Positions 14,892 to 22,139 of a DNA stretch of 64,000 bases are shown here, one piece after another; the stretch's first letter is position 1; every line of letters starts with the position of its first letter. The notes beneath the pieces are model-generated. The model did no database searches, was not told where the DNA came from, and saw only the letters and a list, made by a program, of their open reading frames with translations. The stretch comes from a virus. The stretch is taken from positions 1 through 64,000 of the IMG/VR virus record IMGVR_UViG_3300009081_000009, one strand, 5' to 3'. Position numbers and translations under genes: made by a program.

Positions 14892-16271
14892 ATGAAGACC
14901 AATAAAAAAGAAAATACAACTATGTCTGCTCTTCAATTCATGAGAGAATTCGAGAACACCCAAAAAATCATGGAATCTATTGCGGATAATACCGTAGTTC
15001 AGCAGAAAGCTCTTATGGAAGCTGCATTTGCTGGCGAAGATTATACCGATGATGAAGGTGTGTTTGATATGAATTCTATGCTTGATGTTGATGTAAGCGA
15101 TAAACCAGAAAATCAACCACGCTATTATAATTCACCAGTAGATCCTCTATCAGACTCTGATAAAGCTCTTATTGTAGATGAATTTGCTAAGAAATTAGCT
15201 ACAATGCAAAATGATATCATTGACTTCTCCGAAGTTGGCCCAATTGCCACTGTTATTCAGAATCAATTCGGATTCAAACAGGATGTCGAAAAATTCCTAC
15301 AAGATACAATTCAGAAAACTTCCGATTGGATGCGCAACCAGAACAATACTCAAGCTAACACCAATGGTGTTGCTGAGCAGACTGATGGTGGCCCTGCCGA
15401 TTTGAAGCCAGAAACCACTAGTGGCCCAGAAGGTACTGAAGGTGGAATCGATGGAATGGGAGAAATGGGAGTCGAAGGAATTCCTGCAATGACCGAAGTT
15501 CCTGCAATAACTGATACAGTCGCTGATGCGTCTGCTATCGTTCCACCAGAACCAGCTATGGGTGACATGGTTCCTCCAATGGGTGATGATCAAGGAATTG
15601 AAGGTGCTGAGATGCCTCCTATGGGTGGTGAAGATATGCCTCCAATGGGTGATGATCAAGGAATTGAAGGTGTTGAAGGCGGTGAAGGTGAAGAGATTCC
15701 TCCTATGGGTGATGAAGCTCCAGCTATTCCAGATGAAACCGATGAAGCAACCGAAACACCAGCAGAAGAAACCGCTGAACATGCTACTGGAGAAGAAGCA
15801 CCAGACGAAGCTCCAGAAACCGAGAAACCAGAAGCAAAGGAAGAACCAGAAACTGATGATGATGATGATGATGAAGATGATAAACTTCTAGAATCTATCA
15901 GAAGTGATTATAAGAATGCATCTGTAAAAACTCAACTAGAATCAGTTAAACAAACTTTAATTGACAACACACCTAGTATTGATGCAGTTAAAGCTCAATT
16001 AGAATCTATTTCTTCTAATTTCCATGCAACTGAAAATGCAAAATTGGAAGCCGTAAAACAGGAACGTTATGTTACTGCTCGTTTAGAATCAATTGCATCG
16101 AATTTCAAAAATGCAGAGAAAGCAAAATTAGAAGCAATCGAACATGCAAAAACTGTTGACGCTAGATTACAACAACTACTTGAATCACATCAAGCAAAGT
16201 CAGTTGATGGAAAATCTAATTTAACTGCTAGATTAGAAGCTAAAGATAAAATTGAAAAGTTATCTAAGTAA
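14892..16271 (+). CDS. Acidic late protein, probable prohead core/internal protein
   Basis: Asp/Glu-rich, PPMGDDQGIEG repeats, repeated (L/M)E(S/A) sites; late promoter and AGGA SD. Confidence 0.55.
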   Translation: MKTNKKENTTMSALQFMREFENTQKIMESIADNTVVQQKALMEAAFAGEDYTDDEGVFDMNSMLDVDVSDKPENQPRYYNSPVDPLSDSDKALIVDEFAKKLATMQNDIIDFSEVGPIATVIQNQFGFKQDVEKFLQDTIQKTSDWMRNQNNTQANTNGVAEQTDGGPADLKPETTSGPEGTEGGIDGMGEMGVEGIPAMTEVPAITDTVADASAIVPPEPAMGDMVPPMGDDQGIEGAEMPPMGGEDMPPMGDDQGIEGVEGGEGEEIPPMGDEAPAIPDETDEATETPAEETAEHATGEEAPDEAPETEKPEAKEEPETDDDDDDEDDKLLESIRSDYKNASVKTQLESVKQTLIDNTPSIDAVKAQLESISSNFHATENAKLEAVKQERYVTARLESIASNFKNAEKAKLEAIEHAKTVDARLQQLLESHQAKSVDGKSNLTARLEAKDKIEKLSK

Positions 16272-16290
16272 TTAATTCAATGATATATAC

Positions 16291-16320
16291 AAAGGCGAGA
16301 GAAATCTCGCCTTTTTATTT
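16291..16320. terminator. Bidirectional intrinsic terminator
   Basis: AAAGGCGAGA-gaaa-TCTCGCCTTT followed by a T-run. Confidence 0.85.
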
Positions 16321-16977
16321 TATACGCATCGATTCAGTTTTTATTAAATGCTGAATTCCACTACTAGCGTTTAAGTTAACATAAGATGGATCTGTGACAT
16401 TCAATGATATCCATCTATCAGCCATAGCATAAAAACTATCACGTGTACCAATTATATCAGTTAATGCATCATGTAAGTTTCCACTTGGTTTTATATCAAG
16501 TGCTTCCATTATAGTACCTAATTTAACATTTGGTACATTTAATTTACCTGATTTTTTTAAAGGACGTGTCATATCCATCAAATCATATGATATCTTGGTA
16601 CTAAAATAATATTCCAAATCCACTTCGTTAGCGTTTTTATGTTTTTGCCAAAATGATGATAAAAATCTCTTATCAAATGGAACATTCTGTCCAGCAAATA
16701 TAAATCTAGGTTGACCCTTTACAACATGCGAATCTAATATATTTTTTAATCCAATGAATGCTTCTCTGGGAGGTGGAAATGTTTTCAATTCCTCTACGGT
16801 CTTTCCAGTCACTTTTAACGCATCTTTACTAATGGCCCAAAAATTAACAGGAGAACATATAAAATTAAAAGACTCTAATATTTCGCGATTTTCAGTGACT
16901 AATCCAGCAATCTGAATTATATCCTGACGCTTATCGTCGAATCCTGTTGTTTCGGTATCAATAAATATTACTTTCAT
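16315..16977 (-). CDS. DEDDh 3'-5' exonuclease (DnaQ/epsilon-like)
   Basis: FIDTETTG, GQNVPFD, HDALTD motifs. Confidence 0.9.
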   Translation of the reverse strand: MKVIFIDTETTGFDDKRQDIIQIAGLVTENREILESFNFICSPVNFWAISKDALKVTGKTVEELKTFPPPREAFIGLKNILDSHVVKGQPRFIFAGQNVPFDKRFLSSFWQKHKNANEVDLEYYFSTKISYDLMDMTRPLKKSGKLNVPNVKLGTIMEALDIKPSGNLHDALTDIIGTRDSFYAMADRWISLNVTDPSYVNLNASSGIQHLIKTESMRIK

Positions 16978-17073
16978 AAAATAAATATAGCATTATTTAA
17001 ACCATTGGACTAAAAAATTATGTAATAATCTATATTAATTACATCAAAGGATGTTGAGTAACATCCGTTTATT

Positions 17074-17427
17074 ATGAAGGTATATATGTATTTAGATTAC
17101 GAAAAGAAAGAAATTATAACCAGAATATTCACAAGTCCTGATATAGCTATAATTAAAATAAATAATAAATCAAAACCAAAAACTTGGGGACAAGCTAAAT
17201 ACTGGTTTGACAAAGCATCAAATAATTTAAATCTAGATCCTGATTACTATAAAACAATCGGTTGGGATGAATGGAATGATTTCATGGAAGGTGATAGACC
17301 AGATGATGAAATCTGGCTATTTAAGTTAGAACCAAATAACAACTTCGTTCCATATTCAGAAGGATTCTTCCGTGTCAGAAATGATGAACCAGTTAATTAT
17401 CTGAATCTAAGTGAAATTGATAATTGA
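17074..17427 (+). CDS. Hypothetical protein
   Basis: 117-aa ORF whose stop overlaps the 3' end of the convergent tRNA-Gln. Confidence 0.55.
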   Translation: MKVYMYLDYEKKEIITRIFTSPDIAIIKINNKSKPKTWGQAKYWFDKASNNLNLDPDYYKTIGWDEWNDFMEGDRPDDEIWLFKLEPNNNFVPYSEGFFRVRNDEPVNYLNLSEIDN

Positions 17428-17494
17428 CCTAGCTGGGATCGAACCAGCGTACTTCGGGTCAGAGCCGAATGCACTACCTCTATGCTATAGGTCA
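17424..17494 (-). tRNA. tRNA-Gln(CTG)
   Basis: Cloverleaf TGACCTA...TTCGG-CTCTGAC-CCGAA...GCTGG-TTCGATC-CCAGC-TAGGTCA; U1-A72; CCA not encoded. Confidence 0.92.
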
Positions 17495-17502
17495 TCATTA
17501 TA

Positions 17503-17585
17503 TTGTCCATGTAGGAGTCGAACCTACAGTATCCTTTCGGATGCCAGATTCAAAATCTGGTGAGCTACCATTACTCTAATGGACA
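17503..17585 (-). tRNA. tRNA-Gln(TTG) with atypical long variable arm
   Basis: CCAGA-TTTTGAA-TCTGG anticodon arm; variable arm ATCC-GAAA-GGAT; U1-A72. Confidence 0.88.
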
Positions 17586-17590
17586 TCATA

Positions 17591-17663
17591 TTGTCCGTGC
17601 TGGACTCGAACCAGCATCCTTGTGCTTCAAAGGCACCTGCTCCACCAATTGAGCTAACGGACA
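17591..17663 (-). tRNA. tRNA-Gln(TTG)
   Basis: TGTCCGT acceptor, GTGC-CTTTGAA-GCAC anticodon arm, GCTGG-TTCGAGT-CCAGC T arm. Confidence 0.92.
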
Positions 17664-17669
17664 TCAAAT

Positions 17670-17759
17670 TTATTTATCACATTTAGAACACTTAATTTCA
17701 TTATTATAAGTGAAATATAATAATGAACCACATCTATCACACATCTTTACATAATACAT
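17670..17759 (-). CDS. 29-aa C4 zinc-ribbon microprotein MYYVKMCDRCGSLLYFTYNNEIKCSKCDK
   Basis: Strong SD GAGGTG; CxxC-x13-CxxC; fills the gap between terminator T3 and the first tRNA-Gln. Confidence 0.7.
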   Translation of the reverse strand: MYYVKMCDRCGSLLYFTYNNEIKCSKCDK

Positions 17760-17776
17760 ATACACCTCTATATACG

Positions 17777-17804
17777 AAAAGAACTCTTGCTTCTGCAAGA
17801 GTCC
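17777..17804 (-). terminator. Attenuator terminator T3 upstream of the tRNA-Gln block
   Basis: GGACTCTTGC-AGAA-GCAAGAGTTC-TTTT. Confidence 0.8.
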
Positions 17805-17827
17805 CTAATTTATTTGACATAGCAACA

Positions 17828-17890
17828 TCAATCAGGTGGTCTAGCAGAGCTATCCATTACTTGTTGTTGCTGTTGTTGATTTGTCTTCAT
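17828..17890 (-). CDS. Leader peptide L3 MKTNQQQQQQVMDSSARPPD (Gln sensor)
   Basis: Six consecutive Gln codons (CAA CAA CAG CAA CAA CAA); ATG at the predicted +1 of a consensus promoter; followed by T3 and three tRNA-Gln. Confidence 0.85.
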   Translation of the reverse strand: MKTNQQQQQQVMDSSARPPD

Positions 17891-17896
17891 ATTACT

Positions 17897-17925
17897 AATA
17901 TAGTTCTTTTTTAGTGTTTTGTCAA
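17897..17925 (-). promoter_or_regulatory. Sigma70-type promoter driving leaderless L3
   Basis: TTGACA-N17-TATATT, with ATG 6 nt after the -10 box. Confidence 0.85.
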
Positions 17926-17945
17926 TACTTTTTTATATTTTTTAG

Positions 17946-18017
17946 TGATCCCACAGGAAATCGAATCCTGCTCCACGGATTAAAAGTCCGTTGCTTAACC
18001 TTCCAAGCTCTGAGATC
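17946..18017 (-). tRNA. tRNA-Lys(TTT), divergent (G8, 4-nt variable loop)
   Basis: ACGGA-CTTTTAA-TCCGT anticodon arm; CAGGA-TTCGATT-TCCTG T arm. Confidence 0.85.
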
Positions 18018-18023
18018 ATATAG

Positions 18024-18095
18024 TGGTTCCACAGGGATTCGAACCCTGTTCCATCGGTTAAGAGCCGATTGCATCTCCTATTATGCTTTGGAACC
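18024..18095 (-). tRNA. tRNA-Lys(CTT) (A8, 4-nt variable loop)
   Basis: ATCGG-CTCTTAA-CCGAT; GGTTCCA/TGGAACC acceptor. Confidence 0.88.
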
Positions 18096-18099
18096 TTAG

Positions 18100-18174
18100 T
18101 GGAACTGGTGGGACTTGAACCCACGACCCATCGCTTAAAAGGCGATTGCTCTAAACCAACTGAGCTACAATTCC
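18100..18174 (-). tRNA. tRNA-Lys(TTT)
   Basis: ATCGC-CTTTTAA-GCGAT; canonical D and T arms. Confidence 0.95.
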
Positions 18175-18177
18175 ATA

Positions 18178-18249
18178 TGGGTGTGGAGAGATTTGAACTC
18201 TCGACTCGCTGATTAAAAGTCAGCTACTCTACCACTGAGTTACACACCC
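18178..18249 (-). tRNA. tRNA-Lys(TTT)
   Basis: GCTGA-CTTTTAA-TCAGC; GGGTGTG/CACACCC acceptor. Confidence 0.95.
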
Positions 18250-18250
18250 T

Positions 18251-18287
18251 AAAAAATAAAAAACCTCACAACAACTGTTGCGAGGTT
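18251..18287 (-). terminator. Attenuator terminator T2 upstream of the tRNA-Lys block
   Basis: AACCTCGCAAC-AGTT-GTTGTGAGGTT-TTTTATTTTTT; 5' arm also complementary to GCGAGGTT in leader L2. Confidence 0.9.
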
Positions 18288-18311
18288 CAGTGAAAATCAT
18301 ATAATATGATG

Positions 18312-18371
18312 TTACACAACAACCTCGCTTGGTTGCTTTTTCTGTTTATTTTGTTTACTAATCATCTGCAT
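18312..18371 (-). CDS. Leader peptide L2 MQMISKQNKQKKQPSEVVV (Lys/Gln sensor)
   Basis: AGGA SD; 4 Lys and 3 Gln codons within KQNKQKKQ; 3' end carries the antiterminator strand GCGAGGTT. Confidence 0.85.
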   Translation of the reverse strand: MQMISKQNKQKKQPSEVVV

Positions 18372-18401
18372 AATCTTATCCTATTAAAAACATTCATTTA
18401 G

Positions 18402-18473
18402 TGGTTGCACGGGTATCGAACCCGATCTCCAGATTTTCAGTCTAGCGCATCTACCATATATGCTATCACAACC
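18402..18473 (-). tRNA. tRNA-Phe(GAA), atypical acceptor/T-stem junction
   Basis: CTAGA-CTGAAAA-TCTGG anticodon arm; 8 nt before the UA linker and a 4-bp T stem. Confidence 0.75.
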
Positions 18474-18477
18474 ATAG

Positions 18478-18550
18478 TGGTCAGGATCGGAGTTGAACCG
18501 ATGACGCAAGCATTTTCAGTGCTTCGCTCTACCTACTGAGCTACCTGACC
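18478..18550 (-). tRNA. tRNA-Phe(GAA)
   Basis: AAGCA-CTGAAAA-TGCTT; GGTCAGG/CCTGACC acceptor. Confidence 0.95.
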
Positions 18551-18671
18551 ATATAAAAAAGTCACTTTCATCAGTATTTTCACTAAATCGAGATAATCCC
18601 ATTTTTCTATCCTCAAGTAAACTAAGCTACCACTATGCATCTAACTTATAGGTCTAGATACTTGACCTTTA

Positions 18672-18753
18672 TGGATCAGGCAGGATTCGAACCTGCAATG
18701 CCCGAAGGCGGGTGGGTTACAGCCACCTGAACAACCAATTGTTCAACTGATCC
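18672..18753 (-). tRNA. tRNA-Tyr(GTA)
   Basis: GGTGG-CTGTAAC-CCACC; long variable arm GCC-TTCG-GGC. Confidence 0.93.
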
Positions 18754-18759
18754 TTATAG

Positions 18760-18832
18760 TGGATGTGGTAGGATTTGAACCTACTTCCCCTGCATTATGA
18801 GAGCAGTGCTCGACCAATTGAGCTTCACATCC
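18760..18832 (-). tRNA. tRNA with CAT anticodon (Ile2/lysidine type favoured, elongator Met possible)
   Basis: CTGCT-CTCATAA-TGCAG; G1-C72, so not an initiator; leader L1 has two ATA codons. Confidence 0.85.
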
Positions 18833-18836
18833 ATAG

Positions 18837-18917
18837 TGGGTTAGGTAGGGGTCGAACCTACAGTGCCCGAAGGCGGGGGATTTACAGTCCCCGGAGCAAC
18901 CATTGCTCAACTAACCC
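18837..18917 (-). tRNA. tRNA-Tyr(GTA)
   Basis: GGGGA-CTGTAAA-TCCCC; long variable arm. Confidence 0.95.
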
Positions 18918-18925
18918 AAATTACA

Positions 18926-18959
18926 TAACAAAAACCCACTTCTTTTGGAAGTGGGCTTT
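18926..18959 (-). terminator. Attenuator terminator T1 upstream of the Tyr/CAT/Phe block
   Basis: GCCCACTTC-CAAAA-GAAGTGGGT-TTTTGTT; CACTTCC also complementary to GGAAGTG in leader L1. Confidence 0.9.
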
Positions 18960-18993
18960 ATAACTTTTGCCATACGCATTTTACGTATATAAG

Positions 18994-19065
18994 TTATCGC
19001 ATCACACTTCCTTTCGGAGTTGTTTTTATAAATCGATAATACTTATATATGCGTTTCATGTTCAT
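18994..19065 (-). CDS. Leader peptide L1 MNMKRIYKYYRFIKTTPKGSVMR (Tyr/Ile-AUA/Phe/Lys sensor)
   Basis: Codon run AAA CGC ATA TAT AAG TAT TAT CGA TTT ATA AAA; antiterminator strand GGAAGTG near the 3' end. Confidence 0.85.
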   Translation of the reverse strand: MNMKRIYKYYRFIKTTPKGSVMR

Positions 19066-19072
19066 ACCTTAT

Positions 19073-19102
19073 AATATAGTTCTTTTTAAGACACTTTGAT
19101 AA
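19073..19102 (-). promoter_or_regulatory. Possible second promoter directly ahead of L1
   Basis: AAAAAGAAC-TATATT-A context identical to the L3 promoter; weak -35 TTATCA at 18-nt spacing. Confidence 0.5.
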
Positions 19103-19143
19103 ACTTTTTTAGAGAAATACTACTTTTCTTTCTCTATGTATAC

Positions 19144-19172
19144 AATATAGGAAAAAATTCAATGAATGTCAA
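19144..19172 (-). promoter_or_regulatory. Sigma70-type promoter of the tRNA cluster
   Basis: TTGACA-N17-TATATT. Confidence 0.85.
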
Positions 19173-19186
19173 TGAAAAAGTACAAT

Positions 19187-20809
19187 TTATTCACTTTCCG
19201 GTGGATTGTACTTAATATACTCAGCATATTCATCCATAATTCGCTTATTTTCCGCTTTTTGCCACTTATCGGCCTCATCCAACTGTTTTTTAGTTCCTAT
19301 TGGTTTTGGGGGTTTACGATTCATATCCTTTTCTGAGTCTCTTATATCACTTGCATTCATTTTCAACCTCATTAAATAGTCATCTGGATATTCTTCTAAT
19401 TGCCATTTACTAACACCAGTTACTTTTTTAAGAAATTCTTTTTTATTATTGTCATTCATTGCCTTAAACATAGAAATGATTGAGAATATTGTTTTATCTC
19501 TATAACTCATATCATCTGAATTCAACTTTGATTTTGTGGTAGGTGGATACCATCCCTGTCCTTCTATGATTCCAGCACCCTCTTCCATTTTTCGTAACCT
19601 ATCATAATAATCAGGAATTTCAGCTTCATGATCCTTTGCGATTTCATACGCTATCTCTGGATTATTAGTATGTTCAGACTCTACATCTACGCCCATATCC
19701 AATTGATCCTCTATATCCTCTACAGGAAGTCCATGTTTCTTTGCTATGTCTTCTGGTGTCATTCCATCAGCTCTGCCACCAATAAGATGCTCAGCAGCTT
19801 CGAATCGACCTTTGGGTTTACTATAATGTTCATTCATGACTGTCTTTGTCAATCCTGCATCACGTAACATTAATTCACCGCGACATTTACCATATGATCC
19901 AAGTCTGGTTAAGTCACCACCCATCAATTCCATACTACCCATTAAATCAAATACACCAGAAATAAATTCATTCTCCCATAATTGTTCCATTTGCTCTGAT
20001 GTTAAATAACGAGGACTTCTACTATTACCTCTGACATCAGCTTCATGTGTTAATATAGCTTGACAATACAATTTGAATGGAATCCCAAGCAATCGTTCAA
20101 ATTCTTTTTGTGTAATTCCATCTACTCTATCGCTAATTAACCACAAATCTTCGGGATCACTATCATATACTTTAGCAGCAACACCAGACTGTTGAACATA
20201 TCCATCAGCCTCAGTTCCATTCTGAGCAATTCCTTTAGCATTTTTTGCCAATTTTAATACTTTATCATTACCTAAATCAAATGTTGTACGAGAACTTCCT
20301 GTACCCAATTGAGATAATTTTGATTTAGCATATTTAACTCTTGCAGCAAAACTAGGTAATTGTTTAAATGTTTTTACATCAAATGGCATATCTTGAATAG
20401 ATGTATCTAATCCTTCCAATATGCAAGTTATTAATGAATCATCAGCATTACCTCTAAATGATTCAATGAAAATACGTAATGCGTTATATGATTCTGTCAT
20501 TGGTCTTACCATTGAGTTTGATATAGTGAAATCTTTATGTCGGCCTTTATTTGGTTTAAATCCTAACCCTTTATAAAATTTTAGTAGTTTACCTTTTTTG
20601 CCACCAAAATCAGTTGATGGTGATAGTGATACTTGTTTCTTTACACTATTTGCGTATTGAATTATATCATTCATAATATTAGTCCCTATTCCTGAATTTC
20701 GTAATTCAGGATTGACTACTATTTTAGATACTTCTACACTATTACGTCCATCCCAGACAAATAAGTCAGCGACATCTTTATATTTATCTTTGATTTGATC
20801 TAATGTCAT
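19187..20809 (-). CDS. Multidomain protein: GNAT acetyltransferase + kinase-like + DUF5661-like
   Basis: IVVNPELRNSGIGTNIM (GNAT motif A); LGTGSSR..F...VLKLAKN..GIAQN..E, DL..LGSYG, LRDAG (kinase-like); GVDVESEHT...EIAKDH..E.PDYYDRL (DUF5661-like). Start placed at the ATG right after the upstream stop. Confidence 0.7.
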   Translation of the reverse strand: MTLDQIKDKYKDVADLFVWDGRNSVEVSKIVVNPELRNSGIGTNIMNDIIQYANSVKKQVSLSPSTDFGGKKGKLLKFYKGLGFKPNKGRHKDFTISNSMVRPMTESYNALRIFIESFRGNADDSLITCILEGLDTSIQDMPFDVKTFKQLPSFAARVKYAKSKLSQLGTGSSRTTFDLGNDKVLKLAKNAKGIAQNGTEADGYVQQSGVAAKVYDSDPEDLWLISDRVDGITQKEFERLLGIPFKLYCQAILTHEADVRGNSRSPRYLTSEQMEQLWENEFISGVFDLMGSMELMGGDLTRLGSYGKCRGELMLRDAGLTKTVMNEHYSKPKGRFEAAEHLIGGRADGMTPEDIAKKHGLPVEDIEDQLDMGVDVESEHTNNPEIAYEIAKDHEAEIPDYYDRLRKMEEGAGIIEGQGWYPPTTKSKLNSDDMSYRDKTIFSIISMFKAMNDNNKKEFLKKVTGVSKWQLEEYPDDYLMRLKMNASDIRDSEKDMNRKPPKPIGTKKQLDEADKWQKAENKRIMDEYAEYIKYNPPESE

Positions 20810-20810
20810 A

Positions 20811-22139
20811 TTAGCTCTCATCATATTCAATTATAATATTTGGTGTCGCTTGTCCAACTGTTGAGCTTCCTGTAACTTTAAGTTGTAAATACACATAATC
20901 AGTTTCACCAGCAGACATAGGATTATTTATACCAGCCCCAACAGTTTTTATATTATAGTTTCCTACCAATCCAGTTCTTGTATTTGTAACTTGGTTTCCA
21001 TAACAAGTATTTCTCACTGATTGATATCCTAAAATTTTATAACCAGCTTCCTTTACTGCTATTGGATCAATAGTAACAATTTCATTAACAGTCCCACCAT
21101 TTTCCACTGTAATTCCGTAAATTACCATGTGATATTCATTGTTTGCGATCACATCATCTTTATTATCTAGGAATCGTATAGGATCTGTATCGCCATTAAT
21201 ATTAATAAATCTATATATTCGATTTTCTAAAAAATTAAGGACAGGACTTTTTGTTCCATTCAGATAGAATGCTTTGGTTCCTGCTTGTGTTTCTCTGACT
21301 TCCACTGTATATTCTTCGGTAGTCGCTGGAGTCGTAGATAGATCTATCCATGTTATAGTATATCCGATTTCTGTTTTTATTACATCACCATACTTAAATC
21401 CATTAGGATATGCAGTCAATAAAGCACTAGATGCCGTTAATGTAACTACTCGTTCACCGGATACCGTAGTAACGACAATATCAGAACTTGATATAGGCAA
21501 ATTAGTAGCAGGATCTAAAATAGTAAATACAATAGCACCATTAGTTTTATCTATAAATTGATACGTACTACCTTGAACAATTGGAACATCTATCTGTCTG
21601 TCTTCATTTAGATAAATTAGATTTCCCGTTCCGATATCATGCATACTTATGTTATAATTAATTACAGCTAACCGTTCATCAACATATTGACCGTAATTAT
21701 TATTTACAGTTAATAAAAATGGACTTTCTTTAGTATAATTCCAAATACTATTAGTAGCTATCATAGATACAGTATTTGTTGGTTTTGTATAAGATACTGA
21801 ATTTCCTATATATAAAGTTGGAATGTTTAAATCAGCAGGAGCTTCGGTTTCTGGATATATTCTAATATGACTCAACTGATTAGATGGTGGAGTTTTTAGA
21901 ACTAACTTAAATACAGATTCAAATGAATAGGCTATAGCATCTGGATCATCCGGTCTATACACGCAATATGTATTGGCATCAGATTTATCATCGCTTGGTA
22001 CAACAACACCGGGATTCGGCATTTGTTGATATACAGCAGGAACAGCAGCATCGATTCTTTTTATACCAATGCTGGTTACAGGAGTTCCGAATGTTCCGTC
22101 TTTACCTGTATACTTATAAATGTTAAAAGTTGCACTCAT
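20811..22139 (-). CDS. Virion structural protein, unknown function
   Basis: 442 aa, Thr/Val/Asn-rich beta composition; directly downstream of the neck gene. Confidence 0.5.
   Translation of the reverse strand: MSATFNIYKYTGKDGTFGTPVTSIGIKRIDAAVPAVYQQMPNPGVVVPSDDKSDANTYCVYRPDDPDAIAYSFESVFKLVLKTPPSNQLSHIRIYPETEAPADLNIPTLYIGNSVSYTKPTNTVSMIATNSIWNYTKESPFLLTVNNNYGQYVDERLAVINYNISMHDIGTGNLIYLNEDRQIDVPIVQGSTYQFIDKTNGAIVFTILDPATNLPISSSDIVVTTVSGERVVTLTASSALLTAYPNGFKYGDVIKTEIGYTITWIDLSTTPATTEEYTVEVRETQAGTKAFYLNGTKSPVLNFLENRIYRFININGDTDPIRFLDNKDDVIANNEYHMVIYGITVENGGTVNEIVTIDPIAVKEAGYKILGYQSVRNTCYGNQVTNTRTGLVGNYNIKTVGAGINNPMSAGETDYVYLQLKVTGSSTVGQATPNIIIEYDES

Follow-up and report, generated by a model that had tools for sequence, protein, structure and literature searches.

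We identified a leader in front of four tRNA-Lys genes of a phage that is probably a ribosome-mediated transcription attenuator within a polycistronic tRNA operon, and that would provide demand-driven feedback on the supply of tRNA-Lys. Judging from its sequence, the element most likely lets the phage make tRNA-Lys only while ribosomes decode Lys codons slowly. The anatomy of the element, its conservation, its alternative pairings and the match between leader codons and tRNAs across the genome and in relatives are directly established. The initial annotation of this region had proposed a leader-peptide attenuator, and this reading is supported by the computational tests, all of which came out as predicted.

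Phage genome and tRNA operon

The stretch of DNA analysed here (hereafter the window) comprises the initial 64 kb of an IMG/VR virus record that is 164.7 kb long; CheckV puts the completeness of the record at ~39%. The G+C content of the phage is ~32%. Its portal is of the T4 type, Gp23-type capsid genes occur in syntenic relatives, and by sequence the phage is placed in an uncultured T4-like clade. No cultured phage in the phage database was close (best portal match, ~27% identity), and DNA comparison against that database gave no match, tRNA look-alikes aside. Near-identical DNA was found in freshwater-sediment, peat and wastewater metagenomes. Matches in public sequencing runs were mostly tRNA look-alikes of other organisms; one variant contig, from wastewater, was used, for its differences. 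We infer that the host uses sigma-70-type promoters and Shine–Dalgarno (SD) sites.

The record carries 58 tRNA genes (57 found by ARAGORN and 1 by Rfam), which cover all 20 amino acids and are sorted into amino-acid groups. Some blocks hold several divergent copies with the same anticodon (three Asn GTT and four Glu TTC). ARAGORN also called tRNA-like genes with four-letter anticodons in a Leu/Ser array (G000 103227–103309, outside the window) and in the Lys array of a relative (L022 15050–15137); the anticodons in these calls are tata and gtag, and the genes could have eight-membered anticodon loops or be miscalls.

On the minus strand, the order of elements is P1, leader 1, terminator 1, the tRNAs Tyr/CAT/Tyr, a micro-ORF and two tRNAs for Phe, followed by the proposed Lys attenuator, the four tRNA-Lys genes, P3, a Gln leader with its terminator, a small ORF and three tRNA-Gln genes. 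P1 is the sole promoter upstream of the Lys attenuator, and would drive leader 1, terminator 1, the Tyr/CAT/Tyr tRNAs, the two Phe tRNAs and then the attenuator itself. The 150-nt spacer that holds the attenuator has no promoter-like site on the minus strand (18400–18250). The features of the operon are as follows.

19144..19172, minus strand: promoter P1, sigma-70 type, 11/12 consensus matches
18379..18382, minus strand: Shine–Dalgarno AGGA, 7 nt before the ATG at 18371
18312..18371, minus strand: Lys leader ORF, 19 codons plus stop (stop at 18314–18312)
18336..18356, minus strand: Lys codon cluster, codons 6–12, the proposed stalling zone; Lys retained in relatives
18321..18328, minus strand: region 2, predicted antiterminator 5' strand, ORF codons 15–17, GCGAGGTT
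18290..18317, minus strand: inner hairpin, enclosed by the antiterminator; in the minimum-energy fold, with a short U run after it
18277..18288, minus strand: region 3, terminator 5' arm, common to antiterminator and terminator (folding, alignment)
18262..18272, minus strand: region 4, terminator 3' arm (terminator scan, folding)
18251..18261, minus strand: terminator U-tract, 11 U/A including 10 U
18249–18178, minus strand: tRNA-Lys UUU (ARAGORN)
18174–18099, minus strand: tRNA-Lys UUU (ARAGORN)
18095–18023, minus strand: tRNA-Lys CUU (ARAGORN)
18017–17946, minus strand: fourth tRNA-Lys, UUU (Rfam, 52.8 bits; missed by ARAGORN)
17664..17925, minus strand: adjoining Gln unit (P3, leader, terminator and small Zn-ribbon ORF), directly downstream of the tRNA-Lys genes
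17663–17424, minus strand: three tRNA-Gln genes, after the leader region of the Gln unit

Anatomy of the Lys leader

The whole element spans ~135 nt. The AGGA motif that had been described ahead of the leader ORF is present (18382–18379, 7 nt before the ATG). Lys occupies codons 6, 9, 11 and 12 of the ORF (AAA three times and AAG once) and Gln occupies codons 2, 7, 10 and 13; the other two frames across the span are closed, leaving a single open frame. Within the ORF, GCGAGGTT (18328–18321) is the exact 8-nt complement of AACCTCGC (18287–18280), which lies in the 5' arm of the terminator. This complement had been reported in the initial annotation and was found exact at 18321–18328 and 18280–18287, on the minus strand; the inner hairpin that it was said to enclose is present in the minimum-energy fold and is a possible pause element.

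The terminator stem (18288–18261) has 11–12 bp and a folding energy of −15.8 to −16.7 kcal/mol, and was called independently by the terminator scan. Its U-tract ends at 18251 and the first tRNA-Lys begins at 18249, which bears out the claim that the terminator stops one nucleotide short of the gene. Because there is no promoter in the spacer and the gap between terminator and tRNA is 1 nt, the tRNA-Lys genes should be expressed only through read-through of the terminator. The annotated count of four such genes also holds, three being called by ARAGORN and the fourth by Rfam (52.8 bits, anticodon UUU). Their pairwise identity is 55–71%, despite the shared anticodon UUU in three of them.

No terminator was detected between the tRNA-Lys genes and the Gln unit, the leader of which has six consecutive Gln codons. 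The Gln terminator is separated from the three tRNA-Gln genes by a 29-codon ORF (~17682–17771, minus strand) with two CxxC pairs, resembling a Zn ribbon; it is kept in the relatives L001, L014 and L021, and would be regulated together with the Gln tRNAs. Further upstream in the operon, an SD-led micro-ORF (~18536–18602, minus strand) follows the Tyr/CAT tRNAs and precedes the first tRNA-Phe; it encodes Met-Gly, Arg-Phe-Ser-Asp, an acidic stretch and then one or two Phe codons. This micro-ORF is conserved in L021, L022, L030, L035, L023, L026 and L139, has no terminator and extends 15–45 nt into the tRNA-Phe gene. Stalling at its terminal Phe codons might decide whether ribosomes enter the nascent tRNA, which would be control at the level of processing.

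Significance of the pairing and codon content

The duplex formed by the 72 nt upstream with the terminator 5' arm has an energy of −14.8 kcal/mol, compared with −5.6 ± 1.8 kcal/mol in shuffled sequences. This strength was reached by 0 of 1000 dinucleotide shuffles (p <= 0.001), and no other unit of the genome shows so strong a pairing signal. Folding of the whole leader gave z = −4.0.

The Lys count on its own is modestly unusual (p ~0.03–0.04): 4 Lys among 18 residues has a binomial p of 0.04 relative to the phage's own proteins, and is attained by 2.9% of the genome's 799 small ORFs (six frames). Lys and Gln together account for 8 of the 18 residues (p = 2.6e-4), a content matched by 0.5% of the 799 small ORFs.

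Predicted folding of the nascent leader

Full-length equilibrium folding with ribosome masks was rejected as a test, as it returned the terminator everywhere and gave no discrimination: at any masked ribosome position the full-length leader forms the terminator with P = 0.87–0.97. Because the terminator dominates the full-length equilibrium fold, any switch must be kinetic. The classical trp leader is likewise a terminator at equilibrium in full-length RNA. The replacement test folded the RNA as cut before the 3' arm of the terminator, with a modelled ribosome footprint.

The minimum-energy fold of the cut RNA is the antiterminator, in which regions 2 and 3 close over the inner hairpin. Pairing of the terminator 5' arm in this RNA is 0.67–0.74 with the A-site at codons 2–11, falls to 0.46–0.49 at codon 12 and is 0.14–0.34 from codon 14 to the stop; the drop near the stop is repeated in the relatives L014, L022 and L035. 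From this profile, a ribosome at the Lys codons is predicted to spare the antiterminator, and a ribosome finishing the ORF to remove it. The last two Lys codons are close to region 2, and a ribosome stalled there would mask it partly.

Without a ribosome the antiterminator is also predicted (0.67–0.78), and therefore the predicted default is read-through, unlike the trp leader. It follows from this ribosome-free default that termination would need tight coupling of transcription and translation. In the full-length fold, and for the window sequence only, a weak 7-bp hairpin that could act as a trp-style 1:2 protector occupies half of region 2. This hairpin loses to the antiterminator in truncated RNA, has no counterpart in L022 and is not conserved.

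Conservation among related phages

Relatives were reached through homologues of a neighbouring RNase T-like gene, which led to syntenic contigs. They yielded, together with the window, four distinct variants of the element. The three outside the window are listed below with the identity of the neighbouring gene and the number of Lys and Gln codons in the leader.

L014, 8125–8266: neighbouring gene 92% identical; Lys/Gln 4/4
L022 (and the near-identical L030), 15374–15536: neighbouring gene 57% identical; Lys/Gln 5/0
L035, 12967–13122: neighbouring gene 48% identical; Lys/Gln 4/2

The ORF has 18–19 codons, with 4–5 Lys codons, in all four variants, and each has an SD-like purine run 7–10 nt before the ATG. 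The distance from the stop codon to the terminator arm is 26 nt in the window, L014 and L022 and 32 nt in L035. Relative to the window, L014 has the leader changes N8M and P14L and a different terminator loop. In L022 the terminator arm has changed yet still pairs with region 2, and the antiterminator helix is lengthened to 14 pairs. L035 has a compensatory change (G to A in region 2 and C to U in region 3); across the variants, the outermost antiterminator pair occurs as G–C, G.U and A–U. As the reading frame through region 2 differs in L035, region 2 is conserved as RNA rather than as peptide.

The antiterminator duplexes of the relatives exceed chance in shuffles (p = 0.002, 0.016 and 0.001 in the three relatives). 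In an alignment of the four sequences, all pairs (100%) of the antiterminator and terminator helices are standard, with one compensatory pair in the antiterminator and two in the terminator. The covariation score observed for the antiterminator was reached by 244 of 500 shuffles of these four sequences; antiterminator covariation is therefore supportive, not decisive.

Between L022 and L030 one synonymous Lys change is the sole difference in the ORF, in a setting in which the 5' untranslated regions have diverged, and the wastewater contig has two synonymous Lys swaps and one Asn-to-Lys change, with regions 2–4 unchanged. This pattern of synonymous swaps supports selection on the Lys codons. 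The initial annotation had described a sensor of both Lys and Gln. The Lys part of that claim stands, with 4–5 Lys codons in all four variants; the Gln part does not extend beyond certain lineages, with 4 Gln codons in the window, 4 in L014, 2 in L035 and 0 in L022. Lys sensing is the conserved part of the predicted function, and its Gln half is specific to lineages.

In L021 and L019, Lys tRNAs come straight after those for Phe or Met, without the element, which is therefore dispensable. Exact-pattern scans of viral contigs, with the terminator and with a promoter consensus, gave no match, and a structured-pattern scan of viral contigs recovered L022-type copies only.

Protein-coding insertions occur between the Lys and Gln tRNA blocks of several relatives (L014 8591–9328, L021 8050–9343, L022 13110–14886 and L019 7211–8495) and split operons that are contiguous in the window. 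Pfam matches to HNH-type products were found at L022 12005–12724 (weak) and L019 6105–6968 (faint), a DUF559 product is encoded at L022 14055–14831 and HTH domains were found in L019. In L023 (~15030–15050) and L026 (minus strand), the start codon of a Lys/Gln leader overlaps the stop codon of the preceding protein gene, which suggests that the leader is translationally coupled to the upstream gene.

Codon content of other tRNA leaders

The Lys leader is one of eight candidate leaders in the 164.7-kb record, one for each tRNA block, and a leader ORF with a detectable terminator is present in seven of the eight. In the eight leaders 70 of 170 residues match the leader's own block, compared with a mean of 25 under reassignment, and the true assignment of leaders to blocks is the unique best of 40,320 permutations (p = 2.5e-5). 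The Lys leader and leader 1 are unrelated in sequence and alike in design, in agreement with the initial annotation, which had compared the two attenuators.

The sole block off this design is that for Pro (G000 120700–120891, outside the window), whose promoter is accompanied by an ORF that may be leaderless and contains two adjacent Pro codons only. Because no terminator can be detected and the codons match poorly, this block was not counted as an attenuator.

An automatic pipeline that required a terminator and an ORF of 12–40 codons ending <=60 nt from it was applied to 13 loci. A leader was recovered at nearly every detected terminator, mostly as the sole candidate; the exceptions were one extra ORF in L030 and none in L140, in which the start of the leader is lost at the end of the locus. 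The composition of leaders varies with the content of the tRNA array that follows.

Lys-only block (L022): leader without Gln
Gln-only block (several loci): leader with 5–9 Gln, and Lys at position 2 only
Mixed Gln/Lys block (L023, L026, L139, L140): leader that alternates Lys and Gln
Block of Gln, Tyr, Phe, Lys, Tyr (L024, L033): leader of Phe, Lys, Gln and Tyr

Among the arguments for reading of the ORFs by ribosomes and for a role of codon identity, this concordance between leader and array is the strongest.

It also bears on the Gln codons of the Lys leader. In L139 a Lys/Gln leader stands at the same position, after two Phe tRNAs and before a mixed Gln/Lys array, and the leader in the window may keep an ancestral joint composition. 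A plausible alternative is that the Gln codons look ahead to the next block. Codons for the next block occur in the upstream leader in three nested cases (4 Lys in leader 1, 4 Gln in the Lys leader and 3 Glu in the Asn leader), with a combined p of 0.0012.

Alternative explanations

A constitutive leaky terminator could set the ratio of Tyr/Phe to Lys tRNAs, the ORF and the complement being fortuitous in A-rich sequence. The weak significance of the Lys count taken alone, a full-length equilibrium fold that is always the terminator and the relatives that do without the element are in its favour, but it leaves without a reason the preservation, in four diverged variants, of the SD, the Lys cluster and an ORF with its stop position, where Lys codons have changed synonymously, a complement that goes beyond 1000 shuffles and has a compensatory change, the genome-wide match of leaders to tRNAs (p = 2.5e-5) and a leader composition that tracks array content in relatives; we regard it as quite unlikely. 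The element could instead be a ribosome-dependent attenuator that reports general translation capacity or times the infection, with codon identity of little weight. Such a device would gain from a ribosome-free default of read-through, by which any failure to translate the leader switches the genes on, and from the presence of Gln and other codons in the leader. However, codon content is specific to the block across the eight leaders and tracks the blocks in relatives, and the Lys codons are preserved by synonymous change; neither is expected if codon identity is irrelevant, which makes this explanation rather improbable.

Alternative terminator and antiterminator structures are also a hallmark of T-boxes and riboswitches, and the regulated genes concern tRNA, as might be expected of a translation-independent RNA switch that binds tRNA, a protein or a small molecule and in which the ORF is incidental. 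Yet no T-box or riboswitch family matches at E <= 1, ~135 nt is too small for a T-box stem I with a specifier loop, and the SD, start codon and open frame are conserved, so that a switch of this kind is very unlikely. Equally hard to sustain is a role for the hairpin in tRNA precursor processing or stability (for example, as a 5' leader structure for RNase P or E), with termination secondary. The hairpin stands 1 nt plus the U-tract before the mature 5' end of the tRNA and would be lost in 5' processing in any case, but every part of an intrinsic terminator is present (a G+C-rich stem of 11–12 bp and a U-tract), equivalent hairpins lie 55–178 nt from the next tRNA in other units, and the ORF and antiterminator would be left unexplained.

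Model and implications

For the codon-specific attenuator that we prefer, we infer translation of the ORF, ribosome stalling, kinetic competition between the two structures and the physiological trigger. In the model, RNA polymerase starting at P1 would transcribe leader 1, the Tyr/CAT/Tyr/Phe/Phe tRNAs and then the 150-nt spacer, where a ribosome would bind the SD site. With ample charged tRNA-Lys, the ribosome would reach codons 14–19 or the stop and cover or unwind region 2; region 3 would then pair with region 4, and transcription would stop in the U-tract, 1 nt short of tRNA-Lys. Slow Lys decoding, owing to loss of host tRNA-Lys in infection, to cleavage by an anticodon nuclease or to demand in excess of supply, would instead stall the ribosome at codons 6–11. 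Region 2 would then pair with region 3, enclosing the inner hairpin; the terminator would come too late and the four tRNA-Lys genes would be transcribed, with the read-through transcript running on into the adjoining Gln unit. Fresh tRNA-Lys would end the stall, closing a negative feedback loop. In the lineage of the window, Gln codons would be sensed besides those for Lys.

A broader interpretation is possible, if on balance doubtful: that the element is one node of a phage network organized amino acid by amino acid, in which stalling at Lys codons caused by nucleases of the PrrC or PARIS kind switches on four divergent reserve tRNA-Lys genes. The system would then be an inducible counter-defence and not housekeeping feedback, and the upstream leaders would look ahead, so that a deep shortage opens every terminator en route.

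If the attenuator acts as proposed, tRNA genes can be placed under sensors of ribosome speed in the manner of bacterial amino-acid operons, with a separate feedback loop for each tRNA family. This would explain why the 58 tRNA genes are sorted by amino acid, how a full tRNA set can be carried without wasteful expression and how a phage could answer the loss of tRNAs in infection or attack by anticodon nucleases. It would also bring regulation into the current debate over the reasons for tRNA genes in phages, and would supply compact (~135 nt), testable parts for reporting how fast a codon of choice is decoded.

Relationship to known attenuators

Leader-peptide attenuators are known for the trp, his, leu, thr, ilv and pheA operons of enterobacteria. 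Like these classical systems, the Lys element has a short SD-led ORF with a cluster of regulatory codons and an intrinsic terminator before the regulated genes; its antiterminator uses the 5' arm of the terminator, and the other strand would be masked by a ribosome that finishes the ORF. As in the classical systems, the terminator is more stable than the antiterminator, hence the kinetic control. There are also differences. The targets are tRNA genes rather than genes for biosynthesis, transport or synthetases, so that the product would act on the quantity that is sensed. The Lys element is internal to a tRNA operon, with tRNA genes on both sides, and has no promoter of its own. No conserved 1:2 protector hairpin was seen, so that the untranslated state is predicted to be read-through and not super-attenuation. 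Finally, it is encoded by a phage, as one of a set that covers nearly all amino acids. A pyrBI-type attenuator was rejected, as the stop codon lies 26 nt (32 nt in L035) upstream of the terminator 5' arm, beyond the reach of a terminating ribosome.

Closer in purpose are leaders that also act by attenuation on a part of the translation machinery that handles the amino acid in question, such as the pheM leader of pheST in Escherichia coli and the hisS leaders of bacilli. Leader-peptide attenuation has been described for the His leaders upstream of hisS paralogues in bacilli (PMC2965389). The pheST and hisS leaders control aminoacyl-tRNA synthetases and respond to charging, whereas the Lys element stands before the tRNA genes themselves.

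With T-boxes the Lys element shares the logic by which the status of a specific tRNA selects terminator or antiterminator upstream of related genes. A T-box, in contrast, binds uncharged tRNA directly, through a specifier codon and the T-box bulge and without a ribosome, whereas the sensor of the Lys element is an ORF that is predicted to be translated. Rfam gave no T-box match at E <= 1 in 15000–21000, and the only families to reach threshold were tRNAs. The sole match over the Lys element was the sub-threshold L10_leader (RF00557; 28.5 bits against a cut-off of 44, over 18248–18362). Leader 1 had a sub-threshold match to the threonine operon leader (Thr_leader, RF00506; 22.2 bits against a cut-off of 55, 18925–19051, minus strand); leader 1 is not a member of that family, and its architecture is of the same kind.

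Phage-encoded tRNAs can stand in for host tRNAs that are removed by defence nucleases or by host shut-off; abstracts in this field describe T5 tRNA-Lys acting against the PARIS nuclease AriB (PMC11464382) and variants of the anticodon loop (PMC10264068). As described in those abstracts for T5 and other phages (PMC11464382, PMC10264068), the phage studied here carries its own copies of tRNA-Lys, in this case four that are mutually divergent. The abstracts concern the tRNAs and resistance, to which the Lys element adds an apparent sensor of demand before the genes. Full-text searches of the literature outside subscription journals gave no description of leader-peptide control of tRNA genes. By its structure, the Lys element fits the definition of a leader-peptide attenuator and would extend that class to tRNA genes; what appears to be new here is leader-peptide attenuation aimed at the tRNA genes.
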